Assembly (NCBI GenBank): GCA_964406665.1
Contig: CAYOSQ010000007.1
Location: 11,364-75,363, forward strand
Origin: an uncultured Planctomycetia bacterium
GTDB taxonomy: Bacteria; Omnitrophota; Gorgyraeia; VGKH01; JBHPFN01
DNA: 64,000 bases
Reading direction: 5' to 3'
In this document: positions 2,747 through 57,820 of the stretch, one piece after another
How the letters are laid out: each line of letters opens with the position of its first letter
How positions within the stretch are numbered: the first letter of the stretch is position 1
Notes under the pieces: model-generated
Database searches by the model: none
Seen by the model: only the letters and a program-made list of their open reading frames with translations
What the model was told of the DNA's origin: nothing
Position numbers and translations under genes: made by a program

Positions 2747-3154
2747 ATGATTACGTATAAGATAGAAATGATTGAAGAAGCACTTAAAGAAATCTGTAAA
2801 AAGTTTACTTTAACTAAAAATCTTCAAATCAAAAAAATAAAACTCGAAAAAGAAGATCTACAATACCGGATAACGCTTTTAGATGATTCCCAGCACACAG
2901 TGAAGCAGGAATTATTAAATCAATACATCGAAACCTTAGGCGATAAAGGCGGCTTAGAAATAGCCGGCTGTCTGATGCATTCTATCGAGCAAGAAGAAAG
3001 TGCTTTCTCTTCAGGAGACAGTGATTCTGATGAAACCTGGGACGGAGACATTCAAGATGCTATCGACTATGTTAACAAGCAAAAAAAAGAAGATGGCACT
3101 GAAGATGATGTTGACTACCAGGAAGGAAAAGATGGCGAAGATAAATATTTCTAA
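2747..3154 (+). CDS. Hypothetical small acidic protein (Asp/Glu-rich C-terminus)
   Basis: 135-aa ORF with an AGGGTGA Shine-Dalgarno-like sequence upstream. No recognisable domain. Confidence 0.45.
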   Translation: MITYKIEMIEEALKEICKKFTLTKNLQIKKIKLEKEDLQYRITLLDDSQHTVKQELLNQYIETLGDKGGLEIAGCLMHSIEQEESAFSSGDSDSDETWDGDIQDAIDYVNKQKKEDGTEDDVDYQEGKDGEDKYF

Positions 3155-3160
3155 GATTTA

Positions 3161-5644
3161 TTAATATACCAGTGGTCCCTTTAACCTACGAATACGAAAT
3201 ACTGTTTGCTTCTTAATCACCTTTCTATTCTTCTTTAATTGATTTCTGTTAAGAAAGAGATTCTTCCAAGCCCTGAAAATCGGTCGAATATCTCCATGTG
3301 CACATAACAAAATTCTAAATGTCCACAAACTGCTTGTAGTCAACACGTAGTGCAAAGGTAAATTTAAAACAGCTACCTTGATTCTATTTTCCAAAAAAGT
3401 GGTGAAATATTCACAAGACCCGCTTATCTTTTCATCCTGCTTCTTTTTATGAAGAACTGTCACGCTGGGAAAATATAATATTCTATAACCGGCATCTAAA
3501 ATTCTGTAGGATAAATCAATTTCTTCGTTACCCTTATAAGAAAAGTTTCCATAGACTCCCACTTCCTTAAAAACATCACGGCGCATCGCACAGCCTGCCG
3601 CGATAAACCAAGAGGTTTCAAATTCTTGCCTATGAGATACCATCTTATCTCTCATCGGAAAAGCAGCTTTCTGCAACCTTTTATTAAAATAATCTACAAT
3701 TTTAAAAGCCAAGACTCCAATACTCTCATCATTAATTAATTTATCCACAATTTTGCTTACTGCATCTTTCTCAACAATCTCAACATCATCATCTAAACCT
3801 ATTATGATACCTCCTTTTGATTCATTTATAGCAATATTCCTTCCCGCACTTGCTCCTTTATTAGTATTTTGTCTTAAATATTTAATCTTTTCGTTTTTGA
3901 ATTCTGACTCAAAAAGCTTTTCGGTACCATCTTGAGAACCATTGTCTACTATAATTATTTCATAATTCTCATAGTCCTGCTTTTCAAGTGATAAAAGTAA
4001 TTCACGTAAATATCTTCTGCGGTTAAAAGTGACTATTATAATAGAAACTAGTAGATTTTCTCTGTTTAGATTTACTCTTTTAGCTGAATAGGCTGATCTT
4101 TCAATTCTTTTATCAACAAAAGCATATTCCTTTCCACCCTTTCCCCTTAACTTACCGGCAACCATAGAAAGGACAAATTTGTCTTCGGCATCAAGCTTCA
4201 AAACAAAAATACTAATCAAATATACAATTAAGGTAGAACAAGAAATAATCAAAAGTCTTTTTACTTGAAAAATGTCTTCGCTGATATACTCCTTGATAAA
4301 TCCAAGAAAAACAATACAGACACCAGCAGCAATTAGTCCTTTTAAAAAAGATATTTTGAAAGAATGCATCTTAAGAAAGTGAAAGACTTCAACTAATTGC
4401 ACAAAACTCATTAGCACTATTGAAATTCCGGTTGCAATAGCTGCTCCATGCATCCCGTACTGAGGAATAAGCAAAAAGTTCAATAGAACATTAATTCCGG
4501 CAACAGCAATATCATTAAACAAAATTATTTTATGATGTCCCGACATTATCAACATGTGTCTAGCCGGTCCAATACTACAACGTATAAGTTGCGCAACAAT
4601 CAATATTACCAATACGTAGGAACCCAAAACAAACTTATCTCCAAATAATGCCATGATGTCTCTAGCTAAGAATGCCACAATAATACATGCAGGCAATGTT
4701 AGGAAACTAATCCATTTAGCAGTAATCTTGAATAAGTTTTCCAGTTGTTGACGTTTATTTCTGTTATAAAGATCTGAAATAACAGGTGCAAAAATTGTAA
4801 CAAAAGACCTTAGGAAAATTGTAAGAATAAAGGCAATTTGAACGGCAACCCTATAAATACCAACCTCTACCTCTGTTTTAAAATACCCCAGCATTAAAGC
4901 ATCGGTCCACATAATCAGGAAAAATAAAAAGTCAGAAATGGATAAAGGAAGAGAAAAAGTTATAAGCTTAGAGGTCTCAAATAGAGGCTTAACATCTTTG
5001 GCCACCTTTAATTCTCTATTAATAAGAAATAAAGTTACGACCAAACTTAATACTGCAGAAATTATCCATGCACATATCGCTCCGTAAAGCTTAAATCCAG
5101 CAATGTAGAAAACGCCAATTAAGGATAGATTAACTAAAGGATTGAAGAAATTTCTTACTCCGACGAAATAACGAATTTTCTGAAAACCTCTAGTAACATA
5201 AAGCGCAACTATTAATGATGCTCCAAAAGGTACACCTAAAGAAAAAAGTTTTATAACATTATTTATGCTTATGTTATGGAAAATTCTCTCAGCGATAAAG
5301 CCTGAGCTTAAAAATAATATTGCCCCAATTGCAACTCCTACAATAAATGAAAATGTAATTGATTGAAAAACAACACCCTTAGCCCTCCTATAATCTCCCT
5401 CTCCTAAATACAGGGCAACATATCGAACCGCACCTTCGTGAAGACCAATTCTTGATAAAATCTCAGCAACACCAAAAATTGCAAAACCAAGCGAATAGAT
5501 ACCAAATAGCTCCGCGCCCAAAAATCTAGCAATTATAAGATGTGAAAGACCGTATATTCCGGCACCAAAAAGACTACCAAAGAAACTAATACCTGCCCCC
5601 CTGGCAACTTTTCTTACATCGTTTTCATTAAACTCTATAGTCAT
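3161..5644 (-). CDS. Fusion protein: Wzx-like polysaccharide flippase (MOP superfamily, about 12-14 TM helices) fused to a C-terminal GT2 glycosyltransferase
   Basis: N-terminal ~490 aa are polytopic and hydrophobic, typical of O-unit flippases. The C-terminal ~300 aa carry the GT2 signature ...IIIVTFNRRRYLRELLLSLEKQDYENYEIIIVDNGSQDGT...GLDDD... in one continuous reading frame. Confidence 0.75.
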   Translation of the reverse strand: MTIEFNENDVRKVARGAGISFFGSLFGAGIYGLSHLIIARFLGAELFGIYSLGFAIFGVAEILSRIGLHEGAVRYVALYLGEGDYRRAKGVVFQSITFSFIVGVAIGAILFLSSGFIAERIFHNISINNVIKLFSLGVPFGASLIVALYVTRGFQKIRYFVGVRNFFNPLVNLSLIGVFYIAGFKLYGAICAWIISAVLSLVVTLFLINRELKVAKDVKPLFETSKLITFSLPLSISDFLFFLIMWTDALMLGYFKTEVEVGIYRVAVQIAFILTIFLRSFVTIFAPVISDLYNRNKRQQLENLFKITAKWISFLTLPACIIVAFLARDIMALFGDKFVLGSYVLVILIVAQLIRCSIGPARHMLIMSGHHKIILFNDIAVAGINVLLNFLLIPQYGMHGAAIATGISIVLMSFVQLVEVFHFLKMHSFKISFLKGLIAAGVCIVFLGFIKEYISEDIFQVKRLLIISCSTLIVYLISIFVLKLDAEDKFVLSMVAGKLRGKGGKEYAFVDKRIERSAYSAKRVNLNRENLLVSIIIVTFNRRRYLRELLLSLEKQDYENYEIIIVDNGSQDGTEKLFESEFKNEKIKYLRQNTNKGASAGRNIAINESKGGIIIGLDDDVEIVEKDAVSKIVDKLINDESIGVLAFKIVDYFNKRLQKAAFPMRDKMVSHRQEFETSWFIAAGCAMRRDVFKEVGVYGNFSYKGNEEIDLSYRILDAGYRILYFPSVTVLHKKKQDEKISGSCEYFTTFLENRIKVAVLNLPLHYVLTTSSLWTFRILLCAHGDIRPIFRAWKNLFLNRNQLKKNRKVIKKQTVFRIRRLKGPLVY

Positions 5645-20685: not shown

Positions 20686-21624
20686 TTACCCTTTCCTGAA
20701 GATATAGTTCTCTTGTTTATCGTATTCACTTGGTGTTTTAGTTTTTTCCGAAGCTACAATTGCAAATCCTTTACTCTTTAAAATCTCCATAACTTTTTTA
20801 TGTTCTTTGAGATTATCAAAAAGTTCTATGTATATCTCCTGGACATAATTAAGTGTTTTACTTAAACCTTCGGTTACCATAAGTTCATTTGTATCAACAT
20901 CAATTTTTAACTTTGTAGGATAGGGTAGCTTAAATAATTTAATCATATCATCTATATTCATGCAAAAAGTATCCAGCTTAAACATATCTTTTTCATTAAT
21001 GTTAAATAATGGTTTTCTACCAACAGTATTTAAAGCTCCTCCTTTAGAAAATTCCCGTATATAAAAAGGTTTTAAAGCTGTAGTATCATCACAAGCTATG
21101 GGTACCGGAGTAATTAAATCATTCATTCTGTTTTTATAAATATTTGAATAAAGTGTTTGTAGATTGTTTATTTCTGGTTCGAATGCATACACCTTTACAC
21201 CCTTTGTTTTAGCAGCGTATAATGAATAACCACCTATGTTAGCTCCCACATCAAAGAAAATATCATCTTTTTTAAAAGAATCTATCCATTCAACCATAAG
21301 CTTTTCTTCCGTAAGCAAAGTTTGCGCCCTCCAAACCAACCTACCGTGCCCTGTGGAAAAGATAAGCTTTTCATTATTTGGTAACTTAACTTTTATTACC
21401 GGATCAAGCATTTGTTGAATTTCAACATATAAACGATTATTGCTGTTAAGCCTAAACATGACAATAATAACTTTTGCTAAAGTTCTTATAAATTTCACTA
21501 AAAAGCTAGGTTTATATCCATATTTTCCATCTTTTTTACTATCCGGTGATGGATATAGTAAATTATTTAACTTATCCTTAAAAGTCATAGCAAACCTTTC
21601 TTTTATTCTAGAATTCCTGACCAA
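20686..21624 (-). CDS. FkbM-family methyltransferase
   Basis: FFDVGANIGGYSLYAAKTKGVKVYAFEPEINN is the FkbM (Methyltransf_21) signature. Confidence 0.75.
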   Translation of the reverse strand: MVRNSRIKERFAMTFKDKLNNLLYPSPDSKKDGKYGYKPSFLVKFIRTLAKVIIVMFRLNSNNRLYVEIQQMLDPVIKVKLPNNEKLIFSTGHGRLVWRAQTLLTEEKLMVEWIDSFKKDDIFFDVGANIGGYSLYAAKTKGVKVYAFEPEINNLQTLYSNIYKNRMNDLITPVPIACDDTTALKPFYIREFSKGGALNTVGRKPLFNINEKDMFKLDTFCMNIDDMIKLFKLPYPTKLKIDVDTNELMVTEGLSKTLNYVQEIYIELFDNLKEHKKVMEILKSKGFAIVASEKTKTPSEYDKQENYIFRKG

Positions 21625-22448
21625 GGCAAAACAACAGAAATGTCTTTAGTATCCTTAAGCTTATGCTTAATTTCTGCCTGAATATCTTTATTATTGCTGC
21701 ACACCACAATAACGTCCCCATTTTTAAAATTTTCCACTCTTGGCAAGCGAAAGATTTTCTCGAACTTTCCTTTATAGCTATCGTCAAAATAGAAACAAAT
21801 TCCTCTATCTAAATTATTTCCTTGAACGAGCTCCTTAAATAAAGCCTGAAAATAATAAGAAACACCATAAAAAATGATTCGCTTGCCTTCAGAAGCCTTC
21901 TCACTTACTTTTTTTATAATTTCAGCTTTATTTATTTTAAACTTATCGAATAATGGTTTAACGTCAATTCTATCGCTGCCAGATTTCAGACTCTGTTTAT
22001 CTTTTCTAGCTAACACTCTTAAGAAATTTTTAGTATCACTATAGCAAATCTTAAAACCTTCTAAAGTATCTGATAAAGAACTAAGGTTAAAAAAGCTTAC
22101 GTGCTCAGGAGAAAAGTCTTCAACAAGAAATTCAAGAGAGTTATTCAAATATGGAATTTCGATAAAAAGTAATCCGTCATCATGCAATATTTCTTTTGCT
22201 TCAGCAATGATATTCTTCGAATTCTTCAAATGCTCTAAAGTATGATCTAAAATAATCAAATCGAATTTATAATCAAAAATGTCTTCTCTAAATTGTTTCT
22301 TTATTGTTGGTACTGATACATCGATATTCGCAGGATCAACACCCAAAATTTCCACAGAAGGATTCTTTTCCTTAATCATATACAAAATATCACCGCGGTT
22401 TGAGCCAATTTCTAAGATTTTAATATTTTTTTTTAGGCAACTTTCCAA
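21603..22448 (-). CDS. C-methyltransferase-like protein, SAM-binding plus C-terminal domain; the 3-prime fragment of a gene split by an A9 tract
   Basis: KILEIGSNRGDILYMIKEKNPSVEILGVDP...IILDHTLEHL is class I MT motif I/II, as in TylC3/NovU-type sugar C-methyltransferases. The ORF has no ATG; the track start is a TTG. Confidence 0.6.
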   Translation of the reverse strand: MESCLKKNIKILEIGSNRGDILYMIKEKNPSVEILGVDPANIDVSVPTIKKQFREDIFDYKFDLIILDHTLEHLKNSKNIIAEAKEILHDDGLLFIEIPYLNNSLEFLVEDFSPEHVSFFNLSSLSDTLEGFKICYSDTKNFLRVLARKDKQSLKSGSDRIDVKPLFDKFKINKAEIIKKVSEKASEGKRIIFYGVSYYFQALFKELVQGNNLDRGICFYFDDSYKGKFEKIFRLPRVENFKNGDVIVVCSNNKDIQAEIKHKLKDTKDISVVLPWSGILE

Positions 22449-22725
22449 TAATTAAATTAACTTTATCAATATTTTCTCTACTTCTTCTGGGAAACTCGAA
22501 TAAATCACTTTTTCTAAATTCTGCATAAACCTTTTTAATTATTTCATCATATTGCTTAGAATAAGCACTCCCCTGAAATACATAACCACAATCTTTACAC
22601 TGACTAATTAAAAACATCATGCTTCTTTCACTATTGGAAAAATACGCGCTTTCACTAGAATACACTTCCTCTAAATTAGAGCTTTCACACAGCGGACAGA
22701 TTGTACCTACTTTATTTTTTTTCAT
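22420..22725 (-). CDS. Zinc-ribbon N-terminal module (CPLC...CKDC) of the same C-methyltransferase-like gene; the 5-prime fragment
   Basis: C-x2-C ... C-x2-C Zn-ribbon, as found N-terminal to sugar C-methyltransferases. It ends in ...LPKKKY at an A9 run (22426-22434 on the + strand). Deleting one A fuses it in frame to 21603-22448. Confidence 0.5.
   Translation of the reverse strand: MKKNKVGTICPLCESSNLEEVYSSESAYFSNSERSMMFLISQCKDCGYVFQGSAYSKQYDEIIKKVYAEFRKSDLFEFPRRSRENIDKVNLIIGKLPKKKY
22426..22434. repeat. Homopolymeric T9/A9 tract at the junction of the two C-methyltransferase fragments
   Basis: Nine consecutive T (+ strand) seen directly. A -1 change restores a single ORF. Confidence 0.8.
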
Positions 22726-22728
22726 TGC

Positions 22729-23835
22729 TTAGATATATTCCATCAATTTCATACAATCCTTAACAATAATGTCCATATTGTCATAGTGGTATTTACCCAT
22801 CCTGCCAATGGAATAACAATCTTCTGGTAACAAAGCAAGATACTTATTGGCTTTTCTTATTTCCGATTTAAGTGGATAAGGATAAAGCTTGTTACCGAAA
22901 GATGGAAATTCAACCACTATTAATGTATCTGGAGATTTATATCCGGTCAAAAGCTTATATTCCATAACCCTTGTATAGGGCTCATCACCTGCATAATGCA
23001 AATAGTAATACGGCTCCGGGGTAACCTGCTTACAAGGTAAGATTATCTTTAAGAAGTCTCTACCGATATATTTAAGCTCACCGAATTTATAATCAAACAC
23101 CAGATCTATCGATGCTGAAGAAACAACAATATCAGCCGAAAACCACTTCCCCTTAACTAAAACTCTCTTTTTCTTTAAATTGAATTTCTCTACATAAGAA
23201 TTATAAATCACCTTACAACCTTCAACACATCTATCAAAATAAGAGTTATACCCATCAAGCTCAACTGGATAGGCAATAATCTTCTTCTTATCAAAGCATT
23301 GCTTAGAGCCCTGCTTTAATGCAACGCCTTTTGGAGAGAAAGAAAATTCATCTATGCTTCTGTTGTCTTTCATTTGCCACATCTTTTCAGAATATTTATG
23401 TATAAATTTATCATAAAGCGTTTTTCCCACAGAACGGATCCAGTAATCTTCAAAGTTTTTTGCAGATTTGATATCCTTTCTCTTTAGAAGCTCTCTATAA
23501 ACCCTATCTTTATCTGGCATACCATTAATCTCAGCTTTGTGAATTGGATATGTATAAAACTTGTTATCATCAGATACATAAGTTAAACAATGGTGTTTAA
23601 GTTTGCGTAACTTCAAAAATTTACTGAAATAATCCCAAACATACATCTCCTTCAGATCAATCAGAAGATGGCGTGGTCCGTAAGTGAAAGGATGACCATG
23701 ATAGAAGTACGTTCTACACCCTCCTCCTAGCTCATGACTTGCCTCCACAATTGTTACGTTAAAACCTTTTTGCTTTAACATATATGCGGCAGTGCAACCG
23801 GCAAATCCACCGCCAACTACCAAAGCTTTTTTCAT
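22729..23835 (-). CDS. glf: UDP-galactopyranose mutase
   Basis: MKKALVVGGGFAGCTAAYMLKQKGFNVTIVEASHELGGG (FAD site) and FDYKFGELKYIGRDF ... GRMGKYHYDNMDIIV are collinear with E. coli Glf. Confidence 0.85.
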   Translation of the reverse strand: MKKALVVGGGFAGCTAAYMLKQKGFNVTIVEASHELGGGCRTYFYHGHPFTYGPRHLLIDLKEMYVWDYFSKFLKLRKLKHHCLTYVSDDNKFYTYPIHKAEINGMPDKDRVYRELLKRKDIKSAKNFEDYWIRSVGKTLYDKFIHKYSEKMWQMKDNRSIDEFSFSPKGVALKQGSKQCFDKKKIIAYPVELDGYNSYFDRCVEGCKVIYNSYVEKFNLKKKRVLVKGKWFSADIVVSSASIDLVFDYKFGELKYIGRDFLKIILPCKQVTPEPYYYLHYAGDEPYTRVMEYKLLTGYKSPDTLIVVEFPSFGNKLYPYPLKSEIRKANKYLALLPEDCYSIGRMGKYHYDNMDIIVKDCMKLMEYI

Positions 23836-23866
23836 ACCCCTAACTCCTTAAGATTAATTTAAATCC

Positions 23867-23898
23867 AGATTGTTATATAACATGTTATATAACAATCT
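23867..23898. promoter_or_regulatory. 32-bp perfect palindrome AGATTGTTATATAACATGTTATATAACAATCT in the only sizeable gap (61 nt) of the long operon
   Basis: Reverse complement verified by hand; it is identical on both strands. It lies between the stop of the FkbM MT (23897) and the glf start (23835), about 30 nt upstream of the glf AAGGAG SD. Confidence 0.5.
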
Positions 23899-24850
23899 AT
23901 CCGGAAAACTTTTCATAAAACTTATTTGATTTAGGGAATTCCTCATCAAATAAATTCTTATATGTTGAATAAACCTCATTCTTATTTGTAGATGGAAGAG
24001 ATAGCATATATTTAAATAAAAACGCGATCTTTTCTTTTAATTTCTTAAATAACGGATCGTTTTTAAAACCATCAAATTTAACTTTTTTCTGATCTTTTGC
24101 TCGCTGCATTAAATAAATCGCAATATCAGTTGCATTATTATTCATAAGAAACAACCCCAGCAAAACAACGTTCTCTGCAATTTTTGTGCTATTTTGCTTA
24201 AAAATAATCTCCGGATCTCTGATCCACACTGTCTCACACCCAATTAGTTGTCCATATTTATTCGGAAGGGTGAACTTGCTTAATGCGTGGCCTCGTCCAT
24301 CATAGTTTAGGTTTATTAATTCGAATTTATGCTCTTTTAAGAAATTATGAATGTCTCCAAATAAAGGTGCACCTATATATACCGGAAGAAAATATGTCTC
24401 CAGCCTAATACCCAATACAGTTGAGTCGAGAACGCTTTCTGCTCCTTTTAGAACCTCTAATTCTGTTCCCTCTGTATCGATTTTTAAAAAATGAATATCT
24501 TTATTATGAAATATCGAATCAATTGTTTTAACTGCTACTTTCTTCTCCGAAACAATATCGGCTTCATTTACCATAAACATTTTCTTTTTTCTTAAGGCAG
24601 AATCATTGCTCAAGATTGAGCTTAAGCCATTATGAGCTCTTTGCTTAAAGTTCACCTTACCATCAGAGCTATAGAGCCCCTGGGAATAAACTTCAATATT
24701 CCTATTATCCGCATATTTTTTCCTTAAACGCAAAGCTTCTTTAAAATCCATTTCAAATAGATGAAAATTAGCAATGTCACACAGCTCTTTCCATGTTGGA
24801 TGCAACCCGTAACGCGCTCCCACATCAATAACATTACATTTTAATTTCAT
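23897..24850 (-). CDS. FkbM-family methyltransferase
   Basis: NVIDVGARYGLHPTWKE ... FkbM-type motif. 317 aa. Confidence 0.7.
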   Translation of the reverse strand: MKLKCNVIDVGARYGLHPTWKELCDIANFHLFEMDFKEALRLRKKYADNRNIEVYSQGLYSSDGKVNFKQRAHNGLSSILSNDSALRKKKMFMVNEADIVSEKKVAVKTIDSIFHNKDIHFLKIDTEGTELEVLKGAESVLDSTVLGIRLETYFLPVYIGAPLFGDIHNFLKEHKFELINLNYDGRGHALSKFTLPNKYGQLIGCETVWIRDPEIIFKQNSTKIAENVVLLGLFLMNNNATDIAIYLMQRAKDQKKVKFDGFKNDPLFKKLKEKIAFLFKYMLSLPSTNKNEVYSTYKNLFDEEFPKSNKFYEKFSG

Positions 24851-33786: not shown

Positions 33787-34299
33787 TTAGTACCCAATTA
33801 GTTTTCGGAGGGAATTAATGTTTTTTGTTGTCTTAGCCACTTTATTTATAAGATTATCCAAATCTTTAATGTTTTCTTGATATGCCTTTAATTCATTCTT
33901 TTGTTCTACACTAAGAGCGACCATATCAAGAGTAGCTAGCTTTGCCTTAACCTCATCCAACGAACCCCTACCCTCATCAAGAATACCAGAAAAGATTTCT
34001 ACAGAATGATTAATCACAAAGTTCATAATATCCCTGTTAGCTTCGTAATGGTCTTTGCGGTTTTCCTGCACCCAAACCCTTTTAGCTGCTCCCCATTTCT
34101 CTAAACGCCTAATATTTATGCTAACATTACCCTTGCTCATCCTACAAACCCTACCTAGTTGATCTAAGTCTAGAGCACTCTTGCTAAAATAAAGAGCAGC
34201 GTAAAGCTGCCCAATAGATTTATTCAAACCTATCTTGTTGGTCAGATAGCCGAATCTAAAAATTAGTTCTTCTTGTAAACTTGCAATCTCTTTATTCAT
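33787..34299 (-). CDS. GbsR/MarR-type HTH transcriptional regulator, first gene of the long minus-strand array
   Basis: ...LGRVCRMSKGNVSINIRRLEKWGAAKRVWVQENRKDHYEA... matches the GbsR-family wing/HTH pattern (GdRrdyYeA). Confidence 0.55.
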   Translation of the reverse strand: MNKEIASLQEELIFRFGYLTNKIGLNKSIGQLYAALYFSKSALDLDQLGRVCRMSKGNVSINIRRLEKWGAAKRVWVQENRKDHYEANRDIMNFVINHSVEIFSGILDEGRGSLDEVKAKLATLDMVALSVEQKNELKAYQENIKDLDNLINKVAKTTKNINSLRKLIGY

Positions 34300-34436
34300 A
34301 GATATTAATAGTGTTCAAAATTATTAAAACACCAGATATGTCTTCTTCCAGTCATTTTTTATGCTTTTTCTTATCATGTTTTCCTCCCGATTATCCATTA
34401 AGAAGGATGGCAAAGAGTATCCTTAGGTTCGTTTTA

Positions 34437-35009: not shown

Positions 35010-35073
35010 TTTTTAGAATATAAATATTTTTTTATAAATTTTTCAAAAATAGACAGTTTTGACTCCATTTTCT

Positions 35074-35106
35074 AGCGTTTAGTTTGTTCAAAACAATTTA
35101 AACGCT
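35074..35106. other. Imperfect 33-nt hairpin (AGCGTTTAGTTTGTT-caaa-ACAATTTAAACGCT) followed by ATTTTTGG
   Basis: Seen in sequence; 2 mismatches in a 15-bp stem. It lies between the GT87 stop and the cupin start. Possible operator or terminator-like element. Confidence 0.3.
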
Positions 35107-35179
35107 ATTTTTGGATTATACAACACTCACCACATGCTGTCAATGACAATTTAAGGGTATGATATTATGATTTAAGCGC

Positions 35180-46124: not shown

Positions 46125-46649
46125 ATGAAACTATTAAAAATAATAATTGTCATCTCTTTTTGTGCTATTATCTTTCTACCTGCATCAACATTTGCACAAA
46201 AAAAGCAATACAAATTCTTTGACGGTGAAGATTGGACATATATAGATAGGCTAGAAATACCTGGAGAAACTAAGGTAAAAATTAAGGCACTGGTGTTAAG
46301 ACCAATGTATGAAACTACATTTTTGATGGGAAGTCCTGCGGTTGAAACTTCTGGGCCGATCATTGATTTTCTTCCTGATCTAGATAAGTTTTACGAACAC
46401 AAAGAAAACAAACCACTCCCCCTTCTCTTTGCATTAAAAATAATTGAAGCGCAAAGACGTGGAGCCTCAATACCAACAACTCAAAAACTTAGAAGTTCAA
46501 TGATTATTAAGCTAGTTAATGCAGGCGTAATAGATCCTGCCCGCATAAAGAAACTTTATGGAGAAAAAACTACAGAACCACCCCAAGAAAAACCTGGAAA
46601 AGAAGAATCTGAGGAGAAAAAAGGATTTTTCGGATTATTCAACCGGTAG
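46125..46649 (+). CDS. Secreted hypothetical protein
   Basis: Strong AAGGAGG SD 8 nt before the ATG at 46125. Signal peptide MKLLKIIIVISFCAIIFLPASTFA. The track ORF starts further upstream at 46095. Confidence 0.5.
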   Translation: MKLLKIIIVISFCAIIFLPASTFAQKKQYKFFDGEDWTYIDRLEIPGETKVKIKALVLRPMYETTFLMGSPAVETSGPIIDFLPDLDKFYEHKENKPLPLLFALKIIEAQRRGASIPTTQKLRSSMIIKLVNAGVIDPARIKKLYGEKTTEPPQEKPGKEESEEKKGFFGLFNR

Positions 46650-46672
46650 GAATTAATAATTTCTGTTTTGGA

Positions 46673-47854
46673 TTACTGACTTCTAATACCGTATTCTTCC
46701 ACAATGAATCTTTTCCATTTATCTTCGAACTTATCAAAGTTGTCCCCAAAAACCTTCTCTAGCGCACTCTCTGCAGACATGCCCATTCCCAGATATTCCA
46801 ATATATTTTTGAGCCCGCTATTTCCAACTCTTTTTACAATAAAATCTACAAGTAGATAAGACTCGATATACATAAGGGTTACCATGTTCATATCTTTCAT
46901 ATGCGAAAAATCCTGAGGTATCTGCCTTATAGGCCTTATACCAAAATGAGAAATATATTTTTTTATTAAATCCCTATCTCTCATTTCTACAAAATCTTCC
47001 GCTTTGCTTGCAATTCCTTCATTAAGCCATAATGGACAGTTACCTTTAGTTATTTCATGCACGAGTGCATGCGCATATTCATGATAAACAATTTTTATAA
47101 CATCCTGATCAGTATACTTAAATTTATTTACAGGAATTCTTAACTTTCCATCAAAAATAGCCATTGTCCAATGAGGCCTTCGATGTAACAATTGGTCATA
47201 ATTATTCTCTGAATACAATATTGCGATAACTTTATTAGCAGGATATTGATCAAGAAACATCCCTACCCTTCCATATCCTTCTTCAAGATATGTTCTAATA
47301 TAGGATAATTTATTTACTGGCAGATCGCTAGAATAAGCTATCACGAAATGCATTGTTTCATATTTACCAAAACTCTTCTCGACCTTCTCTTCGCCGCTTA
47401 CTTTATCTAGAAGTTCCCTTAAACCTTTAAGTTCTGGCTTTAAGGCATAGGCTTTACTTAGATATACTTTTGCCTTTTTCATATCCTGAATCCTATAATA
47501 GGCCTGGCCGATATTGTAAAGAGTAAATGGATTACCTTGGTCAAAATTGAGAGCTTGCTCAAACTTCTCAATTGCCAGCCCTGGATTACCATTATTCATA
47601 AGATAAAATGCATAGTTGTTGTAAGCAATTGAAAGGTTCTTTTTAATATTATTATTGGCAGGACTATAAAGATGGGCAGTCTTTAAATCATTTATTGCAC
47701 CTTGGTAATTATTGTTTCTGAGCTTGTTCAGGCCACTTTCATTATATTTGTAAGCCGCCTCATCTGAGCAAAACGCAAGCTTAACAAACAATAAAAAAGC
47801 TAGTAAAACCATAAAGGGTATGATTCTGCGAAAAGTTTTTTTTGTCATCAACAA
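46673..47854 (-). CDS. TPR-repeat protein with a C-terminal Peptidase_MA-like HExxH domain
   Basis: N-terminal signal/TM, TPR-like repeats, then YHEYAHALVHE...PLWLNEGIASKAE (the HExxH...P.W..EG.A pattern of the Peptidase_MA_2 family). Confidence 0.45.
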   Translation of the reverse strand: MLMTKKTFRRIIPFMVLLAFLLFVKLAFCSDEAAYKYNESGLNKLRNNNYQGAINDLKTAHLYSPANNNIKKNLSIAYNNYAFYLMNNGNPGLAIEKFEQALNFDQGNPFTLYNIGQAYYRIQDMKKAKVYLSKAYALKPELKGLRELLDKVSGEEKVEKSFGKYETMHFVIAYSSDLPVNKLSYIRTYLEEGYGRVGMFLDQYPANKVIAILYSENNYDQLLHRRPHWTMAIFDGKLRIPVNKFKYTDQDVIKIVYHEYAHALVHEITKGNCPLWLNEGIASKAEDFVEMRDRDLIKKYISHFGIRPIRQIPQDFSHMKDMNMVTLMYIESYLLVDFIVKRVGNSGLKNILEYLGMGMSAESALEKVFGDNFDKFEDKWKRFIVEEYGIRSQ

Positions 47855-54414: not shown

Positions 54415-56883
54415 ATGTCTTGTTTTAAAAAATTGAACAATAAATTCCTGACTTATCTGCTGATTTCAATAACTGTAATCACCATTGGGCTACATTTTAG
54501 ACTTTATCCTATCACCATCAATTTAAACAGACAAAATCTTTCTGCTTCGAGGATTGCTCTCTTCATAAATATAAAGAAAACTCTAGCCAGAAAAATTAAT
54601 GCTGCTTTCCCAAACCTTCCACAAGAAAACAAAAATGTTTTGATAAATAAAGGATTTGAAAGTTTTACAAAAAAGGATCCTGAAAAATTAAAAGCCTTGA
54701 TAGATGAATTCAAATCAAAAAATGAGAATTCATTATATAGATACTTTCTTCTTGGCTCTGATTCCTATTATTTCTATTATCTAACAAAAGAGATAGTTTC
54801 CCACGGAGCCATATCCAAACAAATAAAAAACGGAAGTTACTTTGATGTTCTTATGAGTGCACCTGGCGGCCATTGGAGGAAAATTGAAGCTCACCCCTAT
54901 TTCGGTTTTTCCATCTACAAACTATTCACTGTTTTTTCTAAAGATTTTTCTCTTCTCTGGGCTTTATCTATTGTTCCTTTAATACTTTTTACTGTCTCGG
55001 CCTTAATTTTTATTTTAATTTGTTTAAATCTAAAGATTGATAAAATTAACATTCTTTTCAGCTCTTTATTCTTTTGTCTTTCTCCAATCTTCATTCAACG
55101 CAGTTCTTTTGGTTGGTACGATAGTGACCCATACAATATTCTATTCTTGTGCCTTGCGCTTTTTATAATTCTTAAGTTAGTAAAAAATGAAACTCATATC
55201 TTCTGGTCCCTTTCCTTGGGTTTTGTTACAGGACTATATTCATTATTTTGGCAGGGCTGGGTTTTGCTACCTGCTCTGTCTTTTTCATCTATGTTTTTTG
55301 TTTTAATCATAAAGGTTATCGAAAAACAAAAATTTACAATATTATTAAAAAAAATCGGGCTATTTTCTGCAAGTTTTCTTATTTTTGCAATAATTATACT
55401 TTCTCCTAAAGGCTTCGCAAATTCTGCTTCCGATATTTCAAGCATCATCTTTGGTTTTTTTCAGCTAAATTCAAATTTATGGCCTGATATCTTCTTAACC
55501 GTCGGAGAACTAAAGTCGCCCAATGCTTTAAAGATTATTCACACATTAGGTGGCTATGTGTTTATCGGAGTTGCTGTTTTGGGTTTTATCTTATTATGCT
55601 TTGGAAGAATCAAAAATTCAGATAAAGGACAGAGTATTGTAATAGTAGTTTCGACAATTTTATGTTTATTATTAACCAGAAACGCTGAACGCTTTGTCCT
55701 CTTTTTATTAGTTCCTATTTCAATTTGTTTTGCGCTAGGAATTAATGAGATCTGGAGGGCTGTAAATACGCAGTACTCAAAAATATCCAAGTTGAGAAAA
55801 AATCATTGTAACTGTGCAGCGACTTTTACATTATCCCTACTTTTGATTTCTCCCTTTATTTACGGCCATGCAACATCTCTTTCTCAAGTCCCTCTTTTTA
55901 ACATCGTATGGAAAGATTCACTTGAAAAAATAAAGAACAAGACTGATAAATCAGCAGTAGTCAATTCCTGGTGGCCTCCTGGACACTTCATTAAAGCTAT
56001 TGCTGAAAGAAGAGTAACTTTTGACGGTGCAACAATCAACACTCCTCAGGCATACTGGATGGCTAATTTCTTTTTATCAAATAGTGAAGAAGAAGCTTTA
56101 GGCATACTAAGAATGTTAAATACCAGCAGCAATGAAGCAACTGAATTTATGATTGATAAAAGAATTCCTCTTCAGAAAGCAATACCTTTATTAAAAGAAA
56201 TAATTGTAAAAAGTAAGCAATCTGCCAAGGATACCCTGAAAAACTATTTAGATGATAAAGATATAGAGCGTATTTTAATATTAACTCATTCAAGCCCCCC
56301 TCCTTCCTATTGCCTTATTTATAATGAAATGGTGGAGAACGCTCTTGGTCTTCGGTTCGTCAAAAATTGGAATTTCAATAAAGCATTTAATATTAAGAAG
56401 GAGCGGTATGCCGCTTTAAAAAAGGGAAAGTTCTTCTGGAGGGGAACCAAAGACTATATAGGAGAGGCTTGGTCTGTTTCTGGTGGTCCAACATACATCG
56501 GAGAAGAATCTTACGAAATCTCCACTAATAATAATTCAATTCGATTTGCTAACGGAGTAATCCTAGATAAAGAATTAATGATTGCTAAAATCGATAGGCT
56601 TGAAGACAAAATATCCGGGGTTCCCCATTCCTTGCTTTATGTAAAAAATAATAAACTAATAGAGAAAAAACTTGAAAATCCGACTATTAAGCTTTCTGTC
56701 TTAATTATTCCTCATTCTAATAACAGTCAAAGTTCAATTGTTGCTCCCGCTGAAGTTCTAAAATCTATTCTTTTTAGGCTTTATTATCTTGATGGGCTGG
56801 GATTAAAAAGGTTTGAAAAGGTTATTCAAGAAGAAAACCCTTTGCTTAAAACAAGGATTTTTGTCTTTAAAATTATCTGGTAA
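54415..56883 (+). CDS. STT3/PglB/AglB-family oligosaccharyltransferase homologue with WWPPG in place of WWDYG
   Basis: EL1 GSDSYYFYYLTKEIVSHGAISKQIKNGSYFDVLMSAPGG resembles STT3 fDPYFNYRtTRFlaeeGfykfhNWFDDrAWYPlG. RSSFGWYDSDPYNILF resembles RSvAGsYDNEgIAIF. The C-terminal soluble domain NKTDKSAVVNSWWPPGHFIKAIAERRVTFDGATIN...NFFLSNSEEEALGILRML resembles NTpEdAkVmSWWDYGYQI..mANRTtLVDNNTWNN...SSnEeaAYkIMR.L. About 13 TM helices. Confidence 0.6.
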   Translation: MSCFKKLNNKFLTYLLISITVITIGLHFRLYPITINLNRQNLSASRIALFINIKKTLARKINAAFPNLPQENKNVLINKGFESFTKKDPEKLKALIDEFKSKNENSLYRYFLLGSDSYYFYYLTKEIVSHGAISKQIKNGSYFDVLMSAPGGHWRKIEAHPYFGFSIYKLFTVFSKDFSLLWALSIVPLILFTVSALIFILICLNLKIDKINILFSSLFFCLSPIFIQRSSFGWYDSDPYNILFLCLALFIILKLVKNETHIFWSLSLGFVTGLYSLFWQGWVLLPALSFSSMFFVLIIKVIEKQKFTILLKKIGLFSASFLIFAIIILSPKGFANSASDISSIIFGFFQLNSNLWPDIFLTVGELKSPNALKIIHTLGGYVFIGVAVLGFILLCFGRIKNSDKGQSIVIVVSTILCLLLTRNAERFVLFLLVPISICFALGINEIWRAVNTQYSKISKLRKNHCNCAATFTLSLLLISPFIYGHATSLSQVPLFNIVWKDSLEKIKNKTDKSAVVNSWWPPGHFIKAIAERRVTFDGATINTPQAYWMANFFLSNSEEEALGILRMLNTSSNEATEFMIDKRIPLQKAIPLLKEIIVKSKQSAKDTLKNYLDDKDIERILILTHSSPPPSYCLIYNEMVENALGLRFVKNWNFNKAFNIKKERYAALKKGKFFWRGTKDYIGEAWSVSGGPTYIGEESYEISTNNNSIRFANGVILDKELMIAKIDRLEDKISGVPHSLLYVKNNKLIEKKLENPTIKLSVLIIPHSNNSQSSIVAPAEVLKSILFRLYYLDGLGLKRFEKVIQEENPLLKTRIFVFKIIW

Positions 56884-56887
56884 GAAA

Positions 56888-57820
56888 CTATTCAAAAACT
56901 GGTCTCACTTGCCCTTGAATCTGCACCTTTCCAGTACCCCCAACTTTAACCCTAGTGGTAACAGTACCTGTACCTGACTGTCTAACTGTGTTATCATCGG
57001 GAGTTTCAACTCCATCGTCTACCATTTGGGTCTTTATCGTAAGCTTACCTTTTCCTGAAACCTGAGATGTAGGCTGACCCGTAGATAAATCAACAGTTTG
57101 TGGATCACCATTCGCAGGTTGAGCCTTAGGTCTATTATCATATTCTTTGATTGCATTTGTTACATTCAAACCACCACCACTACTATGCTTTCTCATAATC
57201 TTTTCTAACTGAGTGGCTAAAAATTCCTCTCTTATCTCTCTTAGTCTTGTCACAGAATCTAAAGCTGCATAATTATCACCCATTAATAAGTAGGTCAAAC
57301 CATTAAGGTAAAGCAGCTTTTCAAATTTGGGTCTTTGCTTCTCGGCTTTTAAAAAATACTCATTAGCTTTATAAGCATCTTTTTTATCAATAAGATAAAG
57401 CAATCCTAAATTAAAGTTTAAATAAAAATAATTAGTGTCAAATTTCAAACCTTTTTTGAAAATTTCAATTGCAGCATCTTTATCATTAAGTTTATTTAGA
57501 GTTGAACCAATATAGTTATAAACTTCCACTTGTGCTGGATTAATAGAAATTGATTTATTAAAATTTTCTAACGCTTTTTCCTCAAAGCCTTTCTTCTGAG
57601 AATAAATACTCCCCAGCAGATTATAAGCATAAAAAAAACTAGGGGCAATTTTTATAACATCATGACAAATTAATTCTACTTGCTCATACTCTCCTGCTTC
57701 AAATAATTCCTGTGCTTGTTTCATCAACGTGTAAACCGAATCATTCTGGGCAAATACAATCCCATCTTTAAAAAAAGTGAACATAAAAATAAGAATAATT
57801 ACGATCAGAGACTTCTTCAT
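56888..57820 (-). CDS. Secreted TPR-repeat protein with a Gly/Thr/Val-rich C-terminal tail; last gene of the T2SS-like operon
   Basis: Signal peptide MKKSLIVIILIFMFTFFKDGIVFAQ, several TPR-like units, and a ~90-aa low-complexity C-terminus. Confidence 0.55.
   Translation of the reverse strand: MKKSLIVIILIFMFTFFKDGIVFAQNDSVYTLMKQAQELFEAGEYEQVELICHDVIKIAPSFFYAYNLLGSIYSQKKGFEEKALENFNKSISINPAQVEVYNYIGSTLNKLNDKDAAIEIFKKGLKFDTNYFYLNFNLGLLYLIDKKDAYKANEYFLKAEKQRPKFEKLLYLNGLTYLLMGDNYAALDSVTRLREIREEFLATQLEKIMRKHSSGGGLNVTNAIKEYDNRPKAQPANGDPQTVDLSTGQPTSQVSGKGKLTIKTQMVDDGVETPDDNTVRQSGTGTVTTRVKVGGTGKVQIQGQVRPVFE

Follow-up and report, generated by a model that had tools for sequence, protein, structure and literature searches.

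A perfect 32-bp palindrome separates the genes for an FkbM-family methyltransferase and UDP-galactopyranose mutase (glf) in a ~31-kb, minus-strand glycan operon of a marine Candidatus Omnitrophota, and most likely represents a young, lineage-specific addition to an otherwise ordinary FkbM-glf spacer of ~29 nt. It bears little resemblance to a regulatory site that is old and under selection. The explanation preferred here, tentatively and with slightly less than even confidence, is a recent local duplication at the DNA level in situ, acting at most as a passive intercistronic mRNA hairpin. All coordinates refer to the window, i.e., the whole 64-kb stretch of DNA that was analysed, in which the junction is organized as follows:

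22729-23835, minus strand: glf, UDP-galactopyranose mutase, 368 aa; its Shine-Dalgarno sequence AAGGAG (23849-23844) lies outside the hairpin
23836-23896, minus strand: FkbM-glf spacer, 61 nt (29 nt without the palindrome; 34 and 25 nt in the relatives)
23867-23898, no strand assigned: 32-bp perfect palindrome AGATTGTTATATAACATGTTATATAACAATCT, based on sequence, simulations, fold and 7 independent contigs with identical sequence
23871-23882, no strand assigned: second copy (in operon orientation) of the 12-mer TGTTATATAACA, 0 mismatches
23883-23894, no strand assigned: first copy (in operon orientation) of the 12-mer TGTTATATAACA, adjoining the FkbM stop codon, 0 mismatches
23897-24850, minus strand: FkbM-family methyltransferase, 317 aa, whose C-terminus aligns with the ends of 12 homologues

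The 32-mer is real and non-random. As the sequence-only reading had claimed, it is an exact inverted repeat, i.e., its own reverse complement with 16-nt arms that are 100 % complementary and have no spacer between them. It is built as AGAT-(TGTTATATAACA)x2-ATCT, where the 12-mer is itself a self-complementary palindrome present in two tandem copies, so that the symmetry passes through the centre of the 32-mer. Each 12-mer can also be read as TGTT-ATAT-AACA, i.e., as two half-sites 4 bp apart. No longer perfect palindrome exists in the window, the runner-up (16 bp) being shorter by a factor of two. A chance occurrence, to which the AT-richness of the sequence might point, or an assembly artefact can practically be dismissed: only 6e-5 such palindromes are expected analytically per window, and the longest perfect arm in 300 first-order Markov simulations of the window was 7-12 nt, with none of them reaching 16 nt.

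The artefact is further contradicted by marine metagenome contigs (JGI, ENA and Logan assemblies) encoding identical FkbM and Glf proteins. The palindrome is unchanged, with identical unique flanks on both sides, in 7 distinct contigs from 7 different assemblies (JGI or ENA). Some contigs do break at the palindrome, which could be taken in favour of an artefact: three (L003, L008, L011) have one end within it or precisely at its border, and the scaffold L002 carries at this position an N-gap with ~100 nt of foreign sequence, such that 4 of the 12 distinct contigs around the FkbM-glf junction are interrupted or mis-joined at the palindrome. This is, however, the expected behaviour of de Bruijn assemblers at a perfect palindrome. 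The apparent variant junction of L002 was considered as an empty site and rejected as a scaffold mis-join with an N-gap. Since the palindrome-bearing contigs are at least 99.9 % identical to the window, they prove the reality of the sequence and say nothing on its constraint.

The palindrome lies within the 61-nt FkbM-glf spacer and overlaps the FkbM stop codon, both of which had been noticed from the letters; the overlap with the TAG (23899-23897, minus strand) amounts to 2 nt. The spacer had also been described as the only gap of the 31-kb array. It is indeed the largest gap from 3161 to 34299, the next one measuring 22 nt, but larger gaps of 137 and 170 nt are present further upstream (34300-34436 and 35010-35179), where the operon promoter is located. 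The distance to the glf Shine-Dalgarno sequence, previously given as about 30 nt, is actually 17 nt from the end of the palindrome, and 31 nt separate the latter from the glf ATG (23835).

Besides FkbM and Glf, the cluster encodes NeuB, a UDP-GlcNAc 2-epimerase, a cytidylyltransferase, several glycosyltransferases and methyltransferases, radical-SAM enzymes, a split transketolase, an ABC exporter and a flippase-glycosyltransferase fusion, preceded by a WbuC-type cupin and a GbsR/CudC/MJ223-type winged-helix regulator as the first two genes of the operon. Gaps in this extremely compact genome are mostly 0-22 nt long, with almost no space for terminators. Convergent genes are only 4-23 nt apart at 3154-3161, 46649-46673 and 56883-56888 of the window. 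The methyltransferase gene directly downstream of glf (21603-22725, minus strand) is split into ORFs of 101 and 281 aa, matching residues 3-103 and 102-377, respectively, of a single 380-aa protein in both relatives described below. The frame changes at an A9 homopolymer (~22438-22446) that is identical in 8 metagenome contigs and could reflect a fixed frameshift, a pseudogene or a slippage site.

The nearest homologues of FkbM (62 and 58 % identity) and Glf (75 and 73 % identity) are encoded in two single-cell genomes of Candidatus Omnitrophota. Both loci are syntenic with the window over ~20 kb, sharing the gene order ABC exporter, radical-SAM genes, transketolase halves, methyltransferase, radical-SAM gene, epimerase, radical-SAM/SPASM gene, FkbM, glf, methyltransferase, second FkbM, GT9 glycosyltransferase and NeuB. 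The FkbM-glf spacers of both relatives (34 and 25 nt; L080/L150 and L081/L151) contain no palindrome, and a comparable one is absent throughout both operons. Subtraction of the palindrome from the spacer of the window (61 - 32) leaves 29 nt, as compared to the 34 and 25 nt of the relatives. Non-conservation in orthologous loci had been named beforehand, along with a lack of transcript starts or ends at the site, as speaking against a regulatory function, and non-conservation is what both syntenic loci display; there is no evidence for the palindrome being a conserved regulatory device. Relatives of intermediate distance were not found (none at 75-100 % identity for Glf and none at 62-100 % for FkbM), and more distant glf loci have different upstream neighbour genes.

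All 12 FkbM homologues, including the two syntenic ones, stop at the same aligned residue (..FYETFS[L/G]*). Thus, the position of the stop codon is native and the palindrome is situated just downstream of the coding sequence. Insertion of the palindrome with duplication of a GGAT target was rejected, since the 12 homologues end at exactly the present FkbM stop; excision of the palindrome together with one GGAT (36 bp) would extend FkbM by 7 codons to a TAG located 4 nt before the glf ATG. A recombination junction between gene cassettes was likewise rejected, since the adjacency of FkbM and glf as well as both flanking modules are conserved in the relatives. GDSL-like genes are found inside both relatives' operons (1534-2733 and 14402-15721 of L150; 1434-2651 and 13279-14568 of L151), and the L150 operon contains an extra 377-aa gene. 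These genes are missing from the window; hence, operon content varies even though FkbM and glf stay adjacent.

In a three-way alignment, the stop-proximal 12-mer (23883-23894) aligns at the same offset with TGTTTTATAAG of L150, 9 of 11 positions being identical (p ~0.01 by our own estimate). This similarity hints that the 12-mer unit may have grown out of native spacer sequence. The doublet build and the symmetry running through the would-be loop point to an origin at the DNA level and in place. An AT-rich, nearly self-complementary stretch just past the FkbM stop may first have become perfectly symmetric and subsequently been doubled in tandem, the likely routes being slippage during replication or a template switch at a hairpin. 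Correction of quasipalindromes and tandem duplication by template switching or slippage are established mutational mechanisms. Such an origin in place fits the doublet, the symmetry through the loop, the absence from the relatives, the normal length of the leftover spacer, the similarity to L150, the lack of expression signals detailed below and the single copy in the surrounding genome. On the other hand, the retention of 32 bases in every sampled contig of a very compact genome could mean selection rather than neutrality. This argument has little power, since the contigs are at least 99.9 % identical.

Transcribed with the operon, the 32-mer is predicted to fold in the minus-strand RNA into an AU-rich 14-bp stem with a 4-nt loop (-12.7 kcal/mol, z = -5.6; -9.6 kcal/mol when folded as DNA). 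The predicted hairpin begins in the FkbM stop codon and persists in a 111-nt context, leaving the glf Shine-Dalgarno sequence unpaired. Thus, the mRNA stem-loop with a 14-bp stem proposed from the sequence is physically plausible according to the fold prediction, while the function ascribed to it (control of processing or stability, or differential expression of the distal genes) found no evidence. Rfam 15 gave no match in the window at gathering score and only chance-level matches (E above 1) around the site.

A leaky intrinsic terminator or attenuator, reducing transcription of the distal half of the operon, appears very improbable. An alternative, extended fold (-14.9 kcal/mol), in which UCCGGAU pairs with AUCUGGA at the hairpin base and which is directly followed by UUUAAAUUAAUCUU (also given as UUUAAAUU), might be taken in its favour. 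This extended stem requires a 4-nt bulge, however, and the predicted structure is far from a classical terminator. The terminator scan detected nothing at the palindrome. Compared with the at least 3 G-C pairs in the stem and at least 5 U in the 8 nt directly after it required of an intrinsic terminator, the perfect 14-bp stem has only 2 G-C pairs, and its tail (GGAUUUAA) contains 3 U in 8 nt, with at most 3 consecutive U in the T-run. An intrinsic terminator was rejected on both counts, and a d'Aubenton-Carafa-type score, calculated by hand, would be clearly negative. The absence of the element from the operons of the relatives also argues against termination.

For the judgement of promoter and operator functions, three features at the upstream end of the operon are relevant:

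33787-34299, minus strand: GbsR/CudC/MJ223-type winged-helix regulator, 170 aa
35073-35107, no strand assigned: 35-bp near-palindrome, starting ~8 nt past the -10 hexamer and unrelated in sequence to the 32-mer
35115-35143, minus strand: operon promoter TTGACA-17-TATAAT, matching the consensus at 12/12 positions

The perfect match of the operon promoter to the consensus indicates that the organism uses canonical sigma-70 promoters. The internal promoter suspected at the palindrome is not supported: a search upstream of glf on the minus strand for -35/-10 hexamers with at least 9/12 matches and 16-18 nt apart, and correspondingly on either strand across 23836-23900, yielded no sigma-70-like site, and this candidate was rejected for lack of a hexamer pair. 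The operon mRNA would start at the consensus promoter (35143-35115), and the 14-bp AU-rich hairpin would form within this transcript, beginning in the FkbM stop codon. Given the missing U-tract, the missing promoter hexamers and the single-stranded glf Shine-Dalgarno sequence, it would most likely act as a passive stem-loop between the two cistrons. Such a hairpin would separate initiation at glf from termination at FkbM; it might also delay 3'-to-5' exonucleases or serve as the mark of a processing site. Its effect on the mRNA is probably small or nil.

The presence of a GbsR-like regulator in the same operon, as assumed previously, was corroborated by matches to NCBIfam CudC (E 1.7e-17) and the structure of MJ223 (PDB 1ku9, E 1.3e-14). 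In B. subtilis, the targets of GbsR are AT-rich inverted repeats whose half-sites are spaced by 4 bp; they lie downstream of the transcription start, and the bound protein represses as a roadblock (PMC7396694). The 32-mer, or its two 12-bp palindromes, may accordingly be conceived to bind a dimeric repressor, e.g., the co-encoded GbsR-type protein. We regard such binding as unlikely, as also its conceivable effect, namely that the bound repressor forms a mid-operon transcriptional roadblock tuning the distal 20 kb (glf onward). In favour of binding, a perfect dyad symmetry that includes the centre is seen more typically in sites acting as DNA than in RNA hairpins, the 32-mer is an AT-rich inverted repeat within a transcribed region, and the 12-mer is readable with the half-site spacing of GbsR operators. 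By analogy with that system, the co-encoded regulator could also be held against a mere in-situ duplication, albeit with little probability that the palindrome serves protein binding.

Several observations speak against an operator. The 12-mer does not recur in the regulatory regions of the window (up to 2 mismatches allowed) or in ~20 kb of flanking genome (up to 1 mismatch); the half-site search suggested from the sequence, when run, thus brought up no further copies there, and a related site at the promoter of the regulator or operon is missing from the window and the 20-kb flanks. The operon promoter is instead accompanied by a palindrome of different sequence, the near-palindrome at 35073-35107. 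The latter reads TAGCGTTTA..TAAACGCTA, has an RNA fold of -12.4 kcal/mol, and is a candidate operator for the GbsR-type regulator, likelier so than the 32-mer, or else a candidate 5' stabilising hairpin. The 32-mer is moreover missing from both orthologous operons (L080/L150 and L081/L151), and the one copy of its core in a related genome (see below) sits inside an ORF. Overall, the operator reading of the palindrome is weak. A literature search for TGTTATATAACA gave a single mention, as a variant of a CcpA site in Clostridium (PMC8091064); a LacI-family gene was not noticed in the window. A dif/Xer site, a reading of our own, was rejected, since the GC skew is uniformly negative across the window without any switch and the arms are unlike the dif consensus.

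No second copy of the sequence was found in ~84 kb of the host genome, the window and its flanks taken together. A scan with one genome per species retrieved 57 loci with two 12-mers within 30 nt, none of them being the source locus; they are mostly iteron- or array-like repeats of unrelated taxa. The zero-spaced doublet was found in just 3 of ~185,000 species genomes. Scanning the JGI metagenomes for the 24-mer likewise gave 57 loci, nearly all from freshwater arrays or a Moranbacteria genome, and no Omnitrophota copies, though the scan also missed the contig of the window itself. In viral contigs, three other palindromes used as controls yielded 22, 2 and 45 loci versus 9 for the 12-mer pair. 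Since other AT-rich 12-bp palindromes occur in pairs equally often or more often, recurrence across taxa is uninformative, which also weakens the operator reading. Longer and single-unit versions of the pattern had no matches in viral contigs, and similarity to phages was rejected, matches being at chance level only. Candidatus Moranbacteria UBA1362 (CPR) contains the 24-mer three times (L025, L046 and L078), each time between genes. Convergent ORFs enclose one copy, which is flanked by runs of A and T (terminator-like); the other two are located shortly upstream of ORFs. On contigs from freshwater lakes (L082-L138), the 24-mer is surrounded by dense GTTATATAAC-type repeats, which look like iteron or operator arrays of a phage or plasmid family.

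One of the three species genomes with the zero-spaced doublet is SAG AM-311-J20, one of the two closest sequenced genomes and holder of one of the two syntenic operons. The identical 24-nt core is located there on a contig other than that of the operon (JBHPFN010000023.1; L066, 6433-6456), in frame within an open frame of >2666 aa with TPR repeats, reading LLYNMLYNT (..KTLLYNMLYNTFS..). The match extends to 25 nt with the preceding T; the flanks otherwise share nothing with the window. The G+C content of the L066 region (47 %) differs from that of the syntenic glycan locus in the same genome (39 %), and a homologue search with a 400-aa segment of the giant ORF around the core, by which an insertion of the 4 or 8 codons might have been recognised, returned nothing. 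With an estimated (by us) chance of ~1e-3 to 1e-4 for the same 24-mer in this genome, the coincidence is unaccounted for by a purely local accident.

One may therefore consider the 24-nt core, (TGTTATATAACA)x2, to be a tiny mobile or copy-prone palindromic element spreading in this Omnitrophota lineage, which we judge to be a rather improbable explanation; the same holds for its landing in spacers and, 24 being a multiple of 3, in frame inside genes. Its presence here and absence from the orthologous site of the relatives, the identical in-frame copy in SAG AM-311-J20 and the limitation of the zero-spaced doublet to 3 species genomes are consistent with this, and such an element would account for the coincidence with SAG AM-311-J20. 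Against mobility count the low copy number (1 per ~84 kb here and 1 strict-pattern match in SAG AM-311-J20), the lack of shared termini or a target duplication beyond the core at the two sites, and the absence of a transposase (RAYT or IS200-like) among the window ORFs scanned. Likewise, no further Omnitrophota copies emerged from the metagenome scan, which had missed the window's own contig as well, and the unit nearest the stop codon seems to be homologous to native L150 spacer sequence, favouring an in-situ origin. We would assign a low probability to the core being a miniature palindromic sequence, inserted or prone to copying, that is specific to a lineage of marine Omnitrophota and can reside in spacers as well as in frame in giant genes. 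If true, it would be a very small analogue of REP sequences or Rickettsia palindromic elements in a phylum for which such repeats have not been described.

Returning to the duplication in situ, a hairpin that altered mRNA stability or polarity would mean a recent, strain-level way for an uncultured nanobacterial lineage to re-balance both halves of its 31-kb surface-glycan operon. This is a modest point. Two practical lessons stand on firmer ground: short-read assemblies are interrupted by perfect palindromes as large as this one, and even a conspicuous perfect palindrome located in the sole gap of an operon is not necessarily a regulatory element under conservation. Wider interest attaches only to the reappearance of the identical 24-mer in a related genome, SAG AM-311-J20.

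Compared to known systems, the palindrome shares with the operators of GbsR-family (MarR-type) regulators, as known from gbsAB and opuB of B. subtilis (PMC7396694), the AT-rich inverted repeat in a transcribed region, the regulator gene being part of the same operon here and each 12-mer being readable as two half-sites 4 bp apart. It differs in that known GbsR operators are located just downstream of the transcription start, whereas the 32-mer lies 11 kb into the operon, as well as in the different sequence of the palindrome at the operon promoter and the absence of the 32-mer from the relatives. Rho-independent terminators likewise consist of a hairpin followed by U residues, some of which are present here; the stem of the 32-mer, in contrast, is AU-rich and without a proper U-tract, stands mid-operon and failed the terminator scan.

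REP sequences and intercistronic stem-loops protect upstream mRNA segments, e.g., the malE-malF REP in E. coli. As in these cases, a polycistronic operon harbours an extragenic palindrome immediately 3' of a stop codon, and a stable hairpin without terminator features is predicted, followed by an AU-rich single-stranded stretch. REPs are, however, imperfect and GC-rich, whereas the 32-mer is perfect, AT-rich, single-copy in ~84 kb and not conserved in the orthologous operons. Rickettsia palindromic elements are palindromic insertions that keep the reading frame, measure 100-150 bp and occur in many copies. The core copy at L066 (6433-6456) resembles them in that it keeps the frame of a giant ORF in a related genome, but the core has only 24 nt and occurs once per genome sampled.

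Correction and duplication of a quasipalindrome explain origin rather than function and leave the same 24-mer in the related genome unaccounted for. They do account for a symmetric, duplicated, self-complementary unit formed in place, without any need for selection. The 32-mer is best filed as a young intercistronic palindrome/hairpin of a known general kind.
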